This document shows positions 1-46,700 of a stretch of 64,000 nucleotides of DNA, piece by piece. Position numbers and translations under genes: made by a program. Within the stretch, counting starts at the first letter, position 1; each line of letters begins with the position of its first letter. Source of the DNA: Spartobacteria bacterium. Its GTDB lineage: Bacteria; Verrucomicrobiota; Verrucomicrobiia; Chthoniobacterales; UBA6821. A model generated the notes under the pieces. It ran no database searches. It was not told the origin of the DNA and was given only the letters and a program-made list of their open reading frames with translations. The DNA is taken from contig CANKWU010000004.1 in assembly GCA_947487385.1 (NCBI GenBank), positions 26,061 to 90,060 of the forward strand. The letters are read 5' to 3'.

Positions 1-133
1 CACAGAGGTAATTGGTCCTCACGGGAGAGGAAATCTCAGCGTACGCGCCGATGGCTCAGTCAGTCCGATTCAGGATCAGTAATGAGGAATTGTGTGTGGA
101 GTCATTCATGCCTTGCCATACCCTGAAGGATAA

Positions 134-298
134 ATATGGAACTCAGAATACCGAGCCGCAGGAGAGGCTGGGATAGACTTCTAAAGGTTGCCCAAAGGGA
201 AAGACGAGCGGGAACGAGCTAATCAAAAGAAAGTAGATTGTTTCTTGAGTTAGCTTGCCTGGCCGTTACTTTGCATCCGTTGAATCTGAGTTCCACAT
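134..298. repeat. TTCC-octamer inverted-repeat element, copy A (no ORF inside)
   Basis: Arms ATATGGAACTCAGA (134-147) and TCTGAGTTCCACAT (285-298) are complementary at 13/14 positions with a ~137-nt spacer. The ATGGAACTCAG core matches the elements at 4660-5102 and 34595-34741. The right arm ends 12 nt before ATG 311. Confidence 0.75.
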
Positions 299-310
299 TC
301 ATTGTTCAAT

Positions 311-2179: not shown

Positions 2180-3469
2180 TTATAATGTTTTGAGGACCCT
2201 GGCAACGCTTGCTAATACTTTCTCAAAGTCCTTGTTAGAATGAGCTGTGGAGAGGAAGCCTGCCTCGAACTGTGAGGGGGCAAAGTAGATTCCTTCCGCC
2301 AGTGCCGTATGGAAGTAGCGGGCGAAGGCGTCAGTATCGCTCCGTTTGGCATCTGCGAGGTTCCGAACTGGCCCTTCGCAGAAGTAGAGGCAGAACATGG
2401 AGCCGATGCGGTGGAAAGTGAGGGGCTTTCCCTTGATGGAGGCCTTCATGGAATCCTCCATCTGTGTACCGAGTGCCTCGAGAAGCTTCCACCCGTTAAT
2501 CCGTTTCATTTCCTTGAGTTGGGCAAGCCCTGCCGCAAGAGCCAGAGGATTGCCGGAGAGGGTGCCAGCCTGATAGACGGGGCCCAGAGGCGCCAGGCAA
2601 TCCATGATGTCTGCGCGACCGCCGAAGGCTCCGACAGGAAGCCCTCCTCCGATGACCTTCCCCATGGTGGTGAGGTCGGGTTTGATCCCGAAGATCTCCT
2701 GAGCTCCTCCTGGAGCAAGCCGGAATCCAGTCATAACCTCGTCAAAGATCAGCAAGGCACCGTATTCGGTACAAAGCTTCCTGAGGGCTTCCAGATAGCC
2801 CGGCTCTGGCAGATAGAGTCCGGCATTAGCAGGAACGGGCTCAAGGATAACGCAGGCGATCTCCTGGCCGGACTCGCGAAAAACGGCTTTCAGGGCTTCA
2901 AGATCGTTGAAGGGAACAGTTGTAGTCAGCGCCGCTAGGGAGGCTGGAATTCCGGCACTGTCTGGCTGGCCGAGGGTGAGGGCACCGCTGCCGGCCTTCA
3001 CCAAGAGCGAATCGACATGGCCGTGGTAGCAGCCCTCGAATTTCACAATGCGCTCGCGGCCTGTGGCTCCCCGTGCCAAGCGGATTGCCGACATGACGGC
3101 TTCTGTCCCGGAGTTCGTCATACGGACCTTCTCCACGGAGGGAACCATCCGGCAGATCGTCTCGGCCATCTCGACCTCCAGGGGATTTGGAATGCCGAAG
3201 CTTGTGCCATGCTTTGCCGTCTCGGTGACGGCATCGATCACGACCTGTGGGGCATGCCCAAGGATCGCCGGTCCCCATGTGCCGACGAAGTCGATGTACT
3301 CCCGCCCATCCACATCAGTGATCGTGCATCCTTTGGCTTTATTGACAAAGAAGGGCTCTCCACCCACGCCCTTAAAGGCACGGACTGGGGAATTCACTCC
3401 ACCGGGAATGCTCGCAGTAGCGCGATTCCAAAGATCATGGGAGATGGGGCCGAGGATAAAAGGAGACAT
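2180..3469 (-). CDS. hemL: Glutamate-1-semialdehyde 2,1-aminomutase
   Basis: 429 aa with [10 protein letters not shown] near the N-terminus and a class-III aminotransferase PLP-lysine region ([14 protein letters not shown]). Full-length family architecture. Confidence 0.95.
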
Positions 3470-3479
3470 TAAAAATAAA

Positions 3480-3503
3480 ATAGGAAACTCAGCAAATCAG
3501 GAA
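3480..3503 (-). promoter_or_regulatory. Start-proximal 24-mer (TTCCTGAT TTGCTGAG TTTCCTAT on the minus strand), 10 nt upstream of the hemL ATG
   Basis: Same three-octamer motif as upstream of nadA (4662-4685, minus strand) and ribF (34718-34741, plus strand). The function (promoter, processing site or translation signal) is not established. Confidence 0.5.
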
Positions 3504-3535
3504 TAGAAGGAATGGAGGCAAAGAAGCATTTCTCC

Positions 3536-3684
3536 CGCAGAGGCGCGGAGGCGCAGAGGAGATGGTGTGAGAGCAGATATTTTGGGATTCAGATTTTAGA
3601 ATTCTTCTTTTTTTTAAAGATGGCTTGTTTGGGGGCTTCCTCTGAATTCCATCTTAAAAATCTCTGCGCCTCTGCGCCTCTGCG
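3536..3684. repeat. GC-rich octamer inverted repeat between nadA and hemL
   Basis: CGCAGAGGCGCGGAGGCGCAGAG (3536-3558) and CTCTGCGCCTCTGCGCCTCTGCG (3662-3684) are reverse complements at 22/23 positions. Each arm is about 3 tandem GCGCAGAG-type octamers. The spacer is ~103 nt and contains a T9 run. Confidence 0.8.
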
Positions 3685-3704
3685 CGAGAACTTTCGACAT
3701 TCTG

Positions 3705-4649
3705 CTATCTGCTTAATTCCAGCATTCGGCGAACCGACTTCTCCGCCTTGGCCCGGAGACCCTCCTCGAGCAGGATCTCGGGTTTAAGGTCGCGGAGGCA
3801 GAGATAGAGTTTTTCCAAGGTATTCCTCTTCATGTAGCGGCACTCTGCACAGGCGCAGGTGTCAGTGGGTCCAGGGATGAACACTTTGTCAGGGATTTCC
3901 CGGCGGAGGCGGTGAAGCATTCCCTCCTCGGTGACGATGACAAAGGCGCTTGCTGGGGAACTCTTGCAATAACTCACCATCTTCTCGGTCGAGCAGACTT
4001 CATCGGCCAGCAAGCGCACGACCTGCGGACACTCGGGATGCGCTACCACAAGGGCCTTGGGATGCTCACGCTTCGCCCTTTCGATGCTGTCTCGAGTATA
4101 CTCCATGTGGACGTAGCAGGAGCCTTGCCAGAGATCCATGGGGCGGCCCGTCTGCTCGATGACCCAGGCACCGAGATTCTGATCCGGGACAAAGAGGATA
4201 TTGCGGTCGGAGGGTGTCGCCTTGACGATCTTCATGGCGTTCCCACTGGTGCAGATGACATCGGCGAGGGCTTTTACCCCAGCGCTACAGTTGATGTAGG
4301 CAATAACGAAGTAGTTTTTCTCGGCATGCTCCTTGAGAAATGACTCCAGTTTATCGGCAGGACACGAATCGGAGAGGGAACAGCCGGCCTCCATGTCGGG
4401 AATCACAACAGTCTTACCCGGGCTGAGGATCTTGGCCGTCTCACCCATGAAGTGAACCCCGCAGAAGACAATCACATCGGCATCAGTCTCGGCAGCCCTC
4501 TGACTGAGGCCGAGTGAATCGCCCACGAAATCGGCGACTTTCTGAATCTCCTCGATCTGGTAGTTATGCGCCAGAATGACGGCGTTCCTCTCCCTCTTCA
4601 GGCGGATGATCTCGGTCGCAAGATCGACGGAGCTTTGAGAATCAGACAT
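3705..4649 (-). CDS. nadA: Quinolinate synthase
   Basis: 314 aa with ILAHNYQ, VHFMGETAKIL and the conserved Cys residues of the NadA family. Typical length. Confidence 0.93.
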   Translation of the reverse strand: MSDSQSSVDLATEIIRLKRERNAVILAHNYQIEEIQKVADFVGDSLGLSQRAAETDADVIVFCGVHFMGETAKILSPGKTVVIPDMEAGCSLSDSCPADKLESFLKEHAEKNYFVIAYINCSAGVKALADVICTSGNAMKIVKATPSDRNILFVPDQNLGAWVIEQTGRPMDLWQGSCYVHMEYTRDSIERAKREHPKALVVAHPECPQVVRLLADEVCSTEKMVSYCKSSPASAFVIVTEEGMLHRLRREIPDKVFIPGPTDTCACAECRYMKRNTLEKLYLCLRDLKPEILLEEGLRAKAEKSVRRMLELSR

Positions 4650-4659
4650 AGAGACAATT

Positions 4660-5102
4660 TAATATGGAACTCATGAAATCAGGAAAAGGAGAGAGGAGAT
4701 AAGCGATAGGAATCTATGCCAACCCGTTTGATGGTAAGTGGCATTGAGGAAAAATTGAGAATGATGCCTGAGGTAGCGTTTGAGGCCTTCACATAGGATC
4801 GGACAATGGTGAAGTGGATGGCTTCAACTTCTTTCACGGCTTTCAGTTCCACAACCAGTTGTTCATCGATCAAGAGATCCAGACGATGTTCTCCGACCTT
4901 ATGATTGCGATAAGTAATTTCGACGGCTTTCTGACGCTCGTAGGCAATCCCTAGAAAGTTCAATTCCAGGCAAAGGGCCTCCTCATAGAATGACTCAAGG
5001 AATCCCGGCCCCAGCGATCGATGAACTTCAATAGCGGCTCCGATCACCTGCTCGCTCAGCTCATTGTCCTTCAGACTTCCTGATTTCCTGAGTTCCACAT
5101 TA
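4660..5102. repeat. TTCC-octamer inverted-repeat element, copy B, enclosing the GxxExxY ORF
   Basis: Arms TAATATGGAACTCATGAAATCAGGAA (4660-4685) and TTCCTGATTTCCTGAGTTCCACATTA (5077-5102) are complementary at 24/26 positions. The ORF start and stop codons both lie inside the arms. Confidence 0.85.
4679..5098 (-). CDS. GxxExxY protein (PD-(D/E)XK nuclease-like fold family)
   Basis: 139 codons from a GTG start. Signature GFLESFYEEAL matches G-x-x-E-x-x-Y, followed by the D/E...ELK core (LDLLIDEQLVVELKAV). The N-terminal ELRKSGS is encoded by the repeat arm. Confidence 0.85.
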   Translation of the reverse strand: MELRKSGSLKDNELSEQVIGAAIEVHRSLGPGFLESFYEEALCLELNFLGIAYERQKAVEITYRNHKVGEHRLDLLIDEQLVVELKAVKEVEAIHFTIVRSYVKASNATSGIILNFSSMPLTIKRVGIDSYRLSPLSFS

Positions 5103-7912: not shown

Positions 7913-7959
7913 TGGTAATCGGATCTAGGGAATGGGTGATGGGTAATGGGTTAGAAGGA

Positions 7960-8013
7960 TGAAATCAGAAACGTGAAAACCTGAACGGCTGAACGGCTGA
8001 ACTGCTGAAAATC
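7960..8013. repeat. Phased TGAA heptamer/octamer run (TGAACGGC x2, TGAACTGC, TGAAAATC, preceded by TGAAATC.. and TGAAAAC)
   Basis: TGAA recurs at 7960, 7974, 7982, 7990, 7998 and 8006. The run lies in the spacer between the peroxiredoxin stop and the acnA start. No complementary partner arm was found. Confidence 0.6.
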
Positions 8014-8504: not shown

Positions 8505-8641
8505 GGGTTAATATGGTAGGAGTGATGAATGATGAGAGTAGTGATGAAAGCTGAGACCTGAGACGTAAAATTCATGAGACAAAGAAACAGGAGACAATTA
8601 AACAAAATAATCCGGGAGTTGACTTGGGAGAAAGGCTGAAA

Positions 8642-11923: not shown

Positions 11924-12018
11924 TAAATTAACACCCTAGTGATTGATCTCAGCGTCTTCAATCCGAATGGGTGGGAATGCTTTGAAATAAGTCAAAGAAT
12001 CAGAGTTCCATCTGTCCA

Positions 12019-24114: not shown

Positions 24115-24185
24115 TGCCCTGTGGTGTAACGGTAACACAGTGCCCTTTGGAGGCATTATTCATGGTTCGAATCCATGCGGGGCAG
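24115..24185 (+). tRNA. tRNA-Gln (anticodon UUG)
   Basis: Cloverleaf folded by hand. Acceptor TGCCCTG/CGGGGCA, D stem GTGT/ACAC, anticodon stem GTGCC/GGCAT with loop CTTTGGA, and T arm CATGG-TTCGAAT-CCATG. 71 nt, no encoded CCA. Confidence 0.9.
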
Positions 24186-24253: not shown

Positions 24254-24291
24254 TAAAAAAAGCCGGACCGAAAAATCGGCCCGGCTTTTTA
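24254..24291. terminator. Bidirectional intrinsic terminator
   Basis: An A-run, the stem AGCCGGACCG/CGGCCCGGCT (9/10 paired, 6-nt loop) and then a T-run. It sits between the convergent tRNA-Gln and small lipoprotein genes. Confidence 0.8.
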
Positions 24292-33824: not shown

Positions 33825-33848
33825 CTCACCTTCCATAATCATTTTTCC

Positions 33849-34571: not shown

Positions 34572-34594
34572 AAACTTTCCTGCAGAGTTTTTTA

Positions 34595-34741
34595 ATATGG
34601 AACTCAGGAACTCAGGAAAAAACTGAGAACTGAAGTGAAATTGTTAGAGACTGAATCTGAAATGCCTCGCTTAGCTTTTCATAGGGATTCTTGATTCTGT
34701 TTCCTGCTGGCAATCACTTCCTGATTTCCTGATTTCCATAT
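34595..34741. repeat. TTCC-octamer inverted-repeat element, copy C (no ORF inside)
   Basis: ATATGGAACTCAGGAACTCAGGAA (34595-34618) and TTCCTGATTTCCTGATTTCCATAT (34718-34741) are complementary at 22/24 positions with a ~99-nt spacer. The right arm ends 9 nt before the ribF ATG. Confidence 0.85.
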
Positions 34742-34750
34742 TTTTTCTCC

Positions 34751-35680
34751 ATGAAGATCCTACACTCCGTCGGCGAACTTTCATCATTGAAGGGGCCCAT
34801 TGTCCTCGCAGCGGGGACATTCGATGGATTGCATTTCGGCCATCAGGCCCTGATTCGTTGTGCCATGGAAGAGGCTGCTACCTGCAGTGGAACGGCAGTC
34901 GTCCTGACCTTTGACCGCCATCCTGCTTCTTTACTTCGTCCTGAGAAGGCTCCGAAACTTTTGACCCGCAATAAGCAGAAAATCTCGCTTCTGGAAGGAC
35001 TGGAGGTTCCCACACTATTGATGCTGGAGTTCACCCGTGAGCTGGCATCGGTGCCTGCCCGTGACTTCATCTCATCGCTGGCTGATTCCTGCTCCCCTCT
35101 TCACGCAATCTGCGTGGGATCTCAATGGTCCTTTGGCCGTGGGGGTGAGGGGAATGTGGATCTCTTGAGGGAACTGGGTTCAGTGCACGGATTCGGTGTC
35201 ATCCAGATTGATCCGTTCGAAGTGGAGGGGGCACCAATTAGCAGCACCAGGATCCGAGCTGCCATTACCTCCGGGGATCTGGCCCAAGCTAACGCATGCT
35301 TGGGCCGAGCCTTCCTGCTCACGGGAACTGTTGTCTCAGGGGCTGGACTCGGAATGACGATCGGCTTTCCGACTGCAAATCTTGATGTCGAAGGGATGCA
35401 GTTGCCTCCCGACGGGGTCTATGTGGTCAAGGTTTTGCATGAAGACGTCGTTCATTCCGGAGTCTGCAATATCGGTCTCCGTCCCACCGTCGACGCCTCG
35501 GCCAAGCGTCGTGTGGTCGAGGTGCATCTCTTCGATCTTTCTCAGAACCTTGTGGGAGAGGAACTCTTGCTGGAGTTCGTTTACTACCTCAGAGGAGAGC
35601 AGAAGTTTACGGGGTTGGAAGAACTCAAGGCCCAAATCGCCCGCGACTGTGAAAAATCGAGGGAACTCCTCAGTTCCTAG
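34751..35680 (+). CDS. ribF: Bifunctional riboflavin kinase / FMN adenylyltransferase
   Basis: GTFDGLHFGHQALI (nucleotidyltransferase) and GFPTANL (riboflavin kinase). Confidence 0.93.
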   Translation: MKILHSVGELSSLKGPIVLAAGTFDGLHFGHQALIRCAMEEAATCSGTAVVLTFDRHPASLLRPEKAPKLLTRNKQKISLLEGLEVPTLLMLEFTRELASVPARDFISSLADSCSPLHAICVGSQWSFGRGGEGNVDLLRELGSVHGFGVIQIDPFEVEGAPISSTRIRAAITSGDLAQANACLGRAFLLTGTVVSGAGLGMTIGFPTANLDVEGMQLPPDGVYVVKVLHEDVVHSGVCNIGLRPTVDASAKRRVVEVHLFDLSQNLVGEELLLEFVYYLRGEQKFTGLEELKAQIARDCEKSRELLSS

Positions 35681-45604: not shown

Positions 45605-45748
45605 GGGGGGAGGCGGGTTTCACCCGCCGCGAATGCTTGCTAAGAGTGTTGGTGTTTTGGTTCTTGGTCAATAGCAGGAAGATTGGGGTAGCAGGCAACG
45701 GAGAGGAATGGGAGGGAGCCCCTGAAGCGGAGTTGCCTGCTTGGCGAT

Positions 45749-46671
45749 TTATGCCGCCTCCTTCATGGTTTCAGGGGTACTGGGCAAGATGGGGATAAGG
45801 CTGTCTGTTTCGGGGGTGAGATGTCCCATCAAGAGCCTTGCGAAGTAGACTTCTAGGGTTCCATTCCGCAGGGGTTTAAGACCCACATCCCCTCCGTGAA
45901 GAGCTGTGGAGAGAAAGACTAACTGGTTCTCAAAGCAGATTTCGCCGGTCCTTTTGACCCTTTGGGTCACGAGCCCCTCGTAGTCGAGTTGATCAGGCGT
46001 TCCCTCCCACTTTTTCGTTGATGGTTCATAGACCTCGGAGGGCATCTTCATGCCCAAGGACTCGTGATGACGTTCCTCGTTAAACTCTCGCTTCCAGACC
46101 ATCTAGAGCAGCCTGACGATCTCAGTAGCAGGTACCCTCCAGCTCCTGGCTGATGTCCTTATGCATCCTCTCATGTCCCCTATTATCCTGTGGGTGGGCG
46201 GGACGACCACGTAGTAAAACGATCCCAAGAGCTACCCACCAGGCAGAGAGCCTGGAGAGTCCCATTAATGCTGCGGGAACTCGAGAAGGGTGCGCCGTTG
46301 TCACTGCGGATGGCCTGGGGGAGTCCATAATGCTCAAAGAGCCTCTTAAGGCTGCTCTCACTTGGCGCTTCCCCATGCTTCCTTTGATAGATCTCCTGCA
46401 ACTTGCGCGCTCCCCAGCGCTTGTGACGCACCCGTAATAATACGATCCGGCATACCTCCTCTTCGCTAAGTGCATTGGGAGTACTCTTGCGGCGGCGACT
46501 GTGTTCCTCCATTCGCCTCATTCCTTCTTCTAGAAGGCGACTCTTCCACTTATAGCCCACCCGTGGGCTGATCCCATACTCTTTGCACAAGGCTCGAAAG
46601 TTGTCTGTTTGCAGCGCTCGAAGCGCAAACTCTCTTCTCTGGCTCATGAGGTCTAGGTGTTGCCACTGCAT
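45749..46671 (-). pseudogene. Degraded IS481-family (rve/DDE) transposase
   Basis: Homologous pieces lie in three reading frames. 46183-46671 carries the HTH N-terminus joined directly to GLPQAIRSDNGAPF. 46122-46475 carries LSRLSAWWVALGI...HPQDNRGHERMH. 45749-46102 carries WKREFNEERHHESLG. This implies an internal deletion of the first catalytic region plus frameshifts. Confidence 0.8.
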
Positions 46672-46700
46672 AGCCCCTTACCCTGCCAGTAAGAGCCCCA

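Follow-up and report, generated by a model that had tools for sequence, protein, structure and literature searches.

Introduction

The 23S rRNA genes of Salmonella, Leptospira, Coxiella and others can carry, in helix 25 or 45, intervening sequences (IVSs). In Coxiella the terminal inverted repeats of the IVS form a 28-bp stem, and an AG-rich box (AGAAGA) and three tandem heptamers, (GACAGAT) x 3, stand before the S23p start (PMC4990558). The number of heptamers varies between strains, and RNase III, by which IVSs are excised, cuts the Coxiella IVS where the first repeat begins (PMC4990558). Where rRNA IVSs and the two families of open reading frames (ORFs) found with them come from, how they move and what purpose they serve have been questions for more than 30 years (PMC4990558). 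Here we describe elements of similar build that lie between protein-coding genes in a 64,000-nt stretch of a Spartobacteria bacterium genome (contig CANKWU010000004.1, positions 26,061 to 90,060), which is called the window in what follows. Their terminal repeat is a 24-mer of three octamers, TTCCTGAK-TTCCTGAK-TTCCAYAT. We think it fairly likely, though well short of certain, that this 24-mer forms the inverted termini of a family of IVS-like palindromes in Verrucomicrobiota, which sit in the gaps between stop and start codons and are probable RNase III substrates.

The Correia elements (nemis) of Neisseria are likewise short (~100-150 bp) and intergenic, have terminal inverted repeats of ~26 bp and often lie beside gene starts. 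They differ in having a conserved core, a site for integration host factor and a TA duplication, whereas the elements described here have unrelated interiors, tandem-octamer arms and no duplication that we could see. Correia elements are transcribed with neighbouring genes, and are reported to create promoters at their ends and to be bound or cut by RNase III (PMC2649163). They thus offer a precedent for two ideas put forward in an original prediction for the 24-mer, namely that it supplies a promoter close to the start codon or that it is an RNA processing site.

Repetitive extragenic palindromic (REP) sequences and their hairpin-forming doublets (REPINs) are also short palindromic intergenic repeats, and they share with our elements the arrangement of one vertically inherited gene at a fixed locus, flanked by inverted copies. 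In the REP system that gene encodes an IS200/IS605-type Y1 transposase, the REP-associated tyrosine transposase (RAYT), whereas ours encodes a protein of a PD-(D/E)XK family (PF13366). Our arms moreover start T-N-A-ATRTGGAA, lack the GTAG/CGTC tag, and overlap the start and stop codons of the ORF. In the early mRNA of bacteriophage T7, RNase III hairpins between cistrons give the downstream message a defined short leader, a processing that Dunn and Studier reportedly described in 1973. These too are long stems between genes, and the arm family described here also occurs beside terminase genes in phage contigs, but the T7 sites are unique sequences and not a dispersed repeat family. Our search of the literature found no published description of the present elements.

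Four elements in the window

An inverted-repeat search of the window identified the 24-mer as the terminal inverted repeat of four palindromic elements, which we name E1-E4. Each occupies the gap between two co-directional genes (gene identities in the window are from Pfam: hemL, nadA, aconitase, AhpC/TSA, LptF/G, truB and ribF). The arms are 24-29 nt long and 83-93% complementary, the stop-side arms begin 8-50 nt past the stop codon of the upstream gene, and the gaps fold as long hairpins (z = -2.7 to -3.9). Only E3 encloses an ORF; E1, E2 and E4 have none. The start-side arms had been noted before, with sequences, coordinates and spacings that proved exact in all cases. It had also been proposed that the arm is more than half of a hairpin. 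Every strong arm (4/4) is half of an inverted-repeat pair, whose other half faces the stop codon of the upstream gene.

E3 lies between the aconitase gene acn and nadA. Its stop-side arm (5077..5102, minus strand) comes 8 nt past the aconitase stop codon (5111), with the AG-rich box AGAGGA in front of it; its start-side arm (4660..4685, minus strand; inverted repeat I2) holds the TGA stop codon of the enclosed ORF (TTCC-TGA). The 24-mer proper (4685..4662) is followed by a 12-nt spacer and the nadA ATG at 4649. E4 fills the gap between truB and ribF: the stop-side arm (34594..34618, plus strand; AATATGGAACTCAGGAACTCAGGAA) begins 22 nt past the truB stop codon, and the start-side arm (34718..34742, plus strand; inverted repeat I3) contains the 24-mer at 34718-34741, from which the 9-nt spacer TTTTTCTCC (34742-34750) leads to the ribF ATG at 34751. 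The RNA fold of 34572-34760 is a single long hairpin (z = -3.55). E1 has its stop-side (5') arm at 124..147 (plus strand; core ATATGGAACTCAGA at 134-147) and its start-side (3') arm at 285..308 (plus strand; core TCTGAGTTCCACAT at 285-298), the core ending 12 nt before the ATG of an ORF at 311. This palindrome (inverted repeat I4) runs outward through the AG-rich box GAAGGATAA and in its extended form stops 2 nt short of that ATG; the fold of 100-325 has z = -2.7.

E2, between nadA and hemL, is compound. The start-side arm of the type described so far (A-type) lies at 3480..3503 (minus strand) and reads TTCCTGAT TTGCTGAG TTTCCTAT; the 10-nt spacer TTTATTTTTA (3470-3479) separates it from the hemL ATG at 3469. 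The stop-side A-type arm (3637..3652, minus strand; ATGGAATTCAGAGGAA) is decayed. Interleaved with these arms is a second, B-type hairpin (inverted repeat I1), with a 3' arm of CTCTGCGC octamers at 3530..3558 (minus strand; period 8 by tandem-repeat finder) and a 5' arm, (GCGCAGAG) x 3, at 3662..3690 (minus strand), which starts 14 nt past the nadA stop codon at 3705. The order is B5'-A5'-loop-B3'-A3', so that neither hairpin is nested in the other, and when the RNA of the gap is folded (z = -3.9) it is the B-type hairpin that prevails.

These strong cases exceed chance. The two-octamer core (a 16-mer) has seven matches where 0.77 are expected, and in 6 of 54 genes a copy of TTCCAYAT with at most one mismatch stops 3-15 nt short of the start (0.5-0.95 expected; 6 is reached in 0 of 2000 shuffles). 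The weaker cases, in which a single octamer had been linked to a start codon, are individually near chance: truB (TTCCATAA, 33831-33838, spacer 10 nt), the peroxiredoxin gene (TACCATAT, 8511-8518 on the minus strand, spacer 6 nt) and LptF/G (TTCCATCT, 12006-12013, spacer 5 nt). Three such cases are seen where ~0.95 are expected (P ~0.07).

We read the elements as IVS-like cassettes, with ORF-less derivatives among them, set tightly between a stop and a start codon. The unit as we delineate it follows the stop codon of the upstream gene and begins with an AG-rich box (~10-16 nt), after which come a 5' arm of tandem octamers that contains an ATG or GTG (ATRTGGAAMTCAGGAAMTCAGGAA), a variable loop, a 3' arm TTCCTGAK TTCCTGAK TTCCAYAT that contains a TGA, and a CT- or T-rich stretch of ~8-20 nt that leads to the downstream gene's ATG. 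Full-length units have a small ORF as their loop, of the GxxExxY/PDDEXK_3 family here and of the 23S_rRNA_IVP family in a sister family of elements. The seemingly constant distance from arm to start codon follows from this geometry, the arm and its short spacer being parts of one inserted unit that fills the stop/start gap.

The comparison with the published Coxiella IVS underlies this reading. Stems of 24-30 bp here compare with ~25-28 bp in IVSs, and the box that immediately follows the acn stop codon (AGAGGA, GGAGA or AGAAGA) compares with AGAAGA in Coxiella. In E3, AGAGGA is followed after 6 nt by the tandem-octamer arm carrying the GTG, where Coxiella uses heptamers. Both systems have the same two ORF families, PF05635 (S23p, a four-helix bundle) and GxxExxY, both have ORF-less forms, and in both the number of repeat units differs between strains (by one octamer here). 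They differ in location, the elements here lying between protein-coding genes rather than in 23S rRNA, and in number, with many copies per genome, most of them without an ORF. No rRNA gene was found in the window with Rfam, nor in the related loci described below with rRNA probe sequences.

The cargo gene of E3

The ORF enclosed by E3 (4679..5098, minus strand) encodes a 139-aa protein of the GxxExxY family in the PD-(D/E)XK nuclease superfamily (PF13366, E = 4e-35; TIGR04256, E = 2e-36). PDDEXK_3 is listed as having no known function (PMC3424549), and a sequence search of the Protein Data Bank with the cargo protein returned no solved relative. The gene starts with a GTG inside the 5' arm and stops with a TGA inside the 3' arm. 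Over 90 homologue clusters of the GxxExxY family (60-99% identity) keep these arm-encoded termini, with M/VELRKSG or MEIRNSG at the N-terminus and LSFS or LSFLSS at the C-terminus.

The gene occupies the same acn-nadA gap in relatives, in 5/5 homologues looked up. Its protein is under purifying selection (ratio of nonsynonymous to synonymous differences, pN/pS, 0.18-0.33 at pS ~0.6), and 19-22 of 22 positions of its 5' arm are identical where synonymous sites differ by ~60%. A search for the cargo gene in all the related loci returned orthologues and one Opitutae remnant only.

Two loci record rearrangements at such junctions. In a metagenome-assembled genome (MAG) of Opitutae (L059:1-400), a unit of ~107 nt stands in three tandem copies, each consisting of the 3' end of a GxxExxY gene, an arm, 3 nt, and the ATG and first codons of a gene whose product begins MFGLFKKLKEGL and is putatively FtsY-like. 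In L198 (10380-10640), downstream of an intact GxxExxY gene, there is a second, truncated GxxExxY C-terminus of another lineage with its own arm, and the segment made of the spacer, the ATG and the first codons (spacer plus ATGTCTTCC) occurs twice; here one cassette seems to have replaced another or been stacked on it at the same junction.

Distribution and geometry in relatives

An exact 20-mer of the arm occurs in at least 116 genome stretches, nearly all from Verrucomicrobiota (Opitutales, the Chthoniobacterales or 'Spartobacteria', and some others). Oleiharenicola lentus and Nibricoccus are among the cultured lineages with matches. These are our related loci L001-L116, and the counts below are from them. 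Among the matches listed, the closest relatives of the window are Chthoniobacterales MAGs, with ~80% DNA identity over hemL-nadA-acn.

In the related loci we found 91 paired elements, most of 61-250 nt, the smallest being a 24-30 bp stem capped by a variable loop of ~15-25 nt; about one quarter of good arms lack a recognisable partner. The gaps that hold paired elements are co-directional in 47 cases, divergent in 19 and convergent in 6. Counted by the gene end that each meets when read outward, the arms point at a start 125 times and at a stop 82 times, and in the 47 co-directional gaps their median distance is ~28 nt to starts and ~18 nt to stops. The distance to the start has two modes in Chthoniobacterales (8-15 and 22-31 nt, together 25/37 cases) and is broad in Opitutales; that to the stop is equally short, 0-25 nt in more than half. 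The fixed spacing of 9-12 nt that had been proposed holds for the strong cases of the window but dissolves outside it, with values from 1 to more than 100 nt. Both outward flanks, whichever gene end they face, begin T-N-A and continue with a pyrimidine-rich stretch, which generic upstream regions do not have; the unit thus extends ~10-15 nt beyond the octamers.

Alignment of element interiors between copies revealed no homology, and a classical miniature transposable element with inverted repeats (MITE) was rejected as a candidate on that ground. The arms behave otherwise, being 20/20 identical across orders while the loops vary freely. Within Opitutales, arms belonging to the same element agree more closely than reshuffled pairs do (0 of 2000 shuffles), an excess that is not seen in Chthoniobacterales, where the arms are nearly uniform. 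Such covariation fits concerted evolution; pairing at the DNA level and at the RNA level are not separated by it.

Much of this would also be expected of a palindrome of the REP, MITE or REPIN kind that is wholly selfish or neutral, tolerated only in spacers and without a role in expression. Its proximity to starts would then reflect no more than the shortness of spacers and the loss, by purifying selection, of insertions into genes. Copies are numerous in each genome and also occur in phage contigs, both arms lie close to whatever adjoins them, and nested, chimeric and solo arms and tandem duplications all occur among the related loci. L067 has two copies 800 nt apart with a shared loop and different flanks, and the arms flank one nuclease-family gene as REPs flank the RAYT gene. 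We nevertheless consider this account rather unlikely. Over long divergence the arms keep their sequence far better than synonymous sites do, which requires either function or continual homogenisation, and elements persist at the same gaps in orthologues. There is in addition a directional signal in Chthoniobacterales. The CATAT end is kept in 31/37 start-facing arms and in 18/34 stop-facing ones, and the sequence after the arm has 5.2 T per 10 nt at starts against 3.8 at stops (p = 0.001) and 2.6 in generic upstream sequence. These two biases leave room for an effect in cis on the downstream gene.

Orthologous gaps and other arm families

At hemL the arm, 9-10 nt and the ATG follow one another in the window and in L204, L201, L070 and L052, and the intact counterpart of the decayed stop-side arm of E2 is present in the last two. 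The interleaved arrangement of A- and B-type arms recurs in the orthologous gap of L072. The hemL genes of L072 and L202 are preceded by a different arm, (CCAACAGY)n, that ends 4-5 nt before the ATG. In the nadA-hemL gap of L202 and L203 this CCAACAGY hairpin encloses a 117-aa PF05635 (23S_rRNA_IVP) gene (L202:11418-11885 and the same region in L203), bounded by the inverted tandem octamers ACTGTTGG... and ...CCAACAGY, and in L202 its arm ends 5 nt before the hemL ATG. Two contigs of one sampling series, nearly identical over this region, have 3' arms of the PF05635 element whose lengths are exactly one octamer apart.

At nadA, orthologues have an A-type arm followed by 8, 12, 12, 16 or 20 nt, and L070 has an unrelated hairpin overlapping the start. 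The acn and ahpC starts of relatives are likewise preceded by tandem 7-8-mers. In the window itself, a repeat region of the same class and other sequence (7931..8009, minus strand; by tandem-repeat finder, 3.6 copies of the octamer CAGCCGTT and three of the heptamer ACCCATT) fills the peroxiredoxin-aconitase gap directly upstream of the aconitase start, where relatives have CCAACAGY octamer arms. Arms without the TATT end, CCAACAGY and CATCCTT, stand at the same gene starts in relatives. Since arm families are exchanged in this way at orthologous starts, what is constant is a tandem-repeat hairpin arm before the start codon, and not TTCCAYAT or an AT-rich end.

A further family of octamer hairpins, (CAAAGTCC)/(GGACTTTG)n, was observed upstream of nadA in a soil verrucomicrobial contig (L132, ~3050-3140). 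Its presence there marks tandem-octamer arms as a recurrent design rather than one sequence family. A NadA-based metagenome scan for more orthologous gaps was given up, its matches being too distant and non-syntenic.

Elements in phage contigs

The 20-mer also occurs in 31 stretches of viral contigs (L205-L235), most of which have verrucomicrobial GC content. In five viral contigs a 538-aa ORF lies near an arm; that of L216, the one scanned, matches the terminase large subunit family, and another viral contig has an ORF matching a tail protein family. Among them, three with 538-aa ORFs that start M-x-K-S-W-T have dissimilar junctions upstream of the terminase gene. In L231 (4715-4730, minus strand) the junction is empty, stop and start overlapping as ATGA. 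In L216 (3390-3545) it is filled by a 5' A-type arm, ~90 nt and a 3' arm of CCTAACAG type, followed by CCTATCTCCCCC and the ATG, and in L219 (8470-8530, minus strand) by heptamer repeats, CCCCCC and the ATG. The comparison of filled with empty sites shows that such cassettes occupy stop/start junctions.

Initiation, promoter and terminator alternatives

The genes with a strong arm do lack a Shine-Dalgarno (SD) sequence, as the original prediction said, but this does not set them apart. GGAG or GAGG occurs at -20..-4 of 7-10% of all predicted genes (window and L001-L116), which is background, and SD-less starts are the rule in these Verrucomicrobiota genomes. With SD sequences missing genome-wide, the suggestion that the arm is a specific SD-independent initiation signal is undercut.

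That prediction also proposed that the AT-rich 3' end of the arm (CATAT followed by T-rich DNA, giving TATTNN) acts as a -10 element from which leaderless or very short-leader mRNAs are made. TATTNN does fall at about -13..-7 from the ATG in the class with 8-13 nt spacing. In generic Chthoniobacterales genes TAnnnT has small peaks starting at -15 or -12 (~14% of genes), hints that some genes are leaderless. The retention of CATAT at start-facing arms and the T-rich DNA next to it point the same way, in the tight divergent gaps L013, L112, L076 and L067 a promoter must overlap the element, and Correia elements create promoters at their own ends (PMC2649163). Set against this, no consensus -35/-10 pair (sigma-70-like, 16-18 nt spacing) was found at E1-E4, and by our own reading of the flanks only about one third of start-facing arms have TAnnnT. 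At the nadA orthologues the spacing takes values between 8 and 20 nt, the arms of Opitutales end CACAT, the CCAACAGY arms before hemL in L072 and L202 have no AT-rich end, and the same arm end faces stop codons 82 times. A -10 promoter or a sequence-specific initiation signal is not supported by this evidence; we regard the promoter as improbable, and its annotation at these sites is unwarranted from sequence alone.

An intrinsic terminator or attenuator, in which the hairpin and a U-rich tract halt or modulate transcription between genes, strikes us as more improbable still. In Chthoniobacterales a T-rich run does follow the hairpin on the sense strand (for example CCATATTTTATTTTTT), and all the window copies lie between co-directional genes. 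A terminator scan nevertheless returned nothing at the arms of E2-E4 and one match at E1 (157..140, minus strand), which uses part of the stop-side arm in a short stem. The stems are long, AU-closed and often drawn around loops of 100-400 nt, a poor geometry for termination, and Opitutales have no T-tract. A terminator 10 nt before a start codon would moreover deprive the downstream gene of its transcript, barring an overlapping promoter.

Proposed mechanism

An RNA processing site is our best guess at mechanism, the stems probably being RNase III substrates that punctuate operon transcripts. On transcription of an operon the two arms would pair into a stem of 24-30 bp, and RNase III, by analogy with IVSs and Correia elements, would cut it. 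The cut would split the cistrons apart and give the downstream mRNA a leader that is short, unstructured and rich in pyrimidines, which would suit a lineage that does not use SD sequences. The elements may have spread, or replaced one another, as cassettes at stop/start junctions, and most present copies would be ORF-less derivatives. We infer that the elements are, or were, mobile as cassettes and that the enclosed proteins act on the arms.

Several results weigh against this proposal. No transposase is present, the only enclosed ORF being PDDEXK_3, and no target-site duplication was found, the middle base of T-N-A failing to agree between the two sides, whether read as a direct or an inverted repeat. 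The copies in chromosomes have the look of old, vertically transmitted sequence, which lends no support to present mobility in host chromosomes. A strand test at the RNA level showed no excess of G.U over A.C pairs in the sense orientation (24 against 35, spread over many positions, after removal of nested duplicates; 28 against 47 before), so the stem may instead act as DNA, or may have no role. The related loci were picked by exact arm match, which makes arm conservation at one side of each a matter of construction, and their gene calls come from our own simple ORF and codon model.

We also consider, as a speculative extension to which we would give little more than an outside chance, that IVS-type cassettes are a general class of hairpin of which rRNA is only the best-known site, that the GxxExxY protein maintains or spreads the hairpins and that they have been co-opted as RNase III punctuation. 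In Verrucomicrobiota such cassettes would populate the stop/start junctions of ordinary operons and phage genomes. The GxxExxY protein (PD-(D/E)XK) would be a trans-acting enzyme for the ORF-less hairpins, in a system like REPIN-RAYT with a nuclease in place of the transposase, and the co-opted hairpins would give SD-less genes short, unstructured leaders.

In this lineage there are many copies outside rRNA, some with an ORF and some lacking one, replacement of one family by another at orthologous gaps, and filled and empty phage sites. These features make the questions of insertion, processing and ORF role testable. For annotation, the arms account for the odd protein termini MELRKSG...LSFS, for spurious small ORFs in Verrucomicrobiota and for the missing SD sequences there.

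Other features of the window

A search of the whole window with Rfam 15 returned one tRNA only at the gathering score, and permissive Rfam searches gave sub-threshold matches only, to models of plant microRNA hairpins. The tRNA gene lies at 24115-24185, and ~70 nt beyond it is a perfect terminator-like palindrome, AAAAAGCCGGACCGA...TCGGCCCGGCTTTTT (24257-24290). At 45700-46700 (minus strand) there is a decayed IS481-like transposase gene, recognisable by HTH_32 and LZ_Tnp_IS481 followed by broken rve fragments in different frames.

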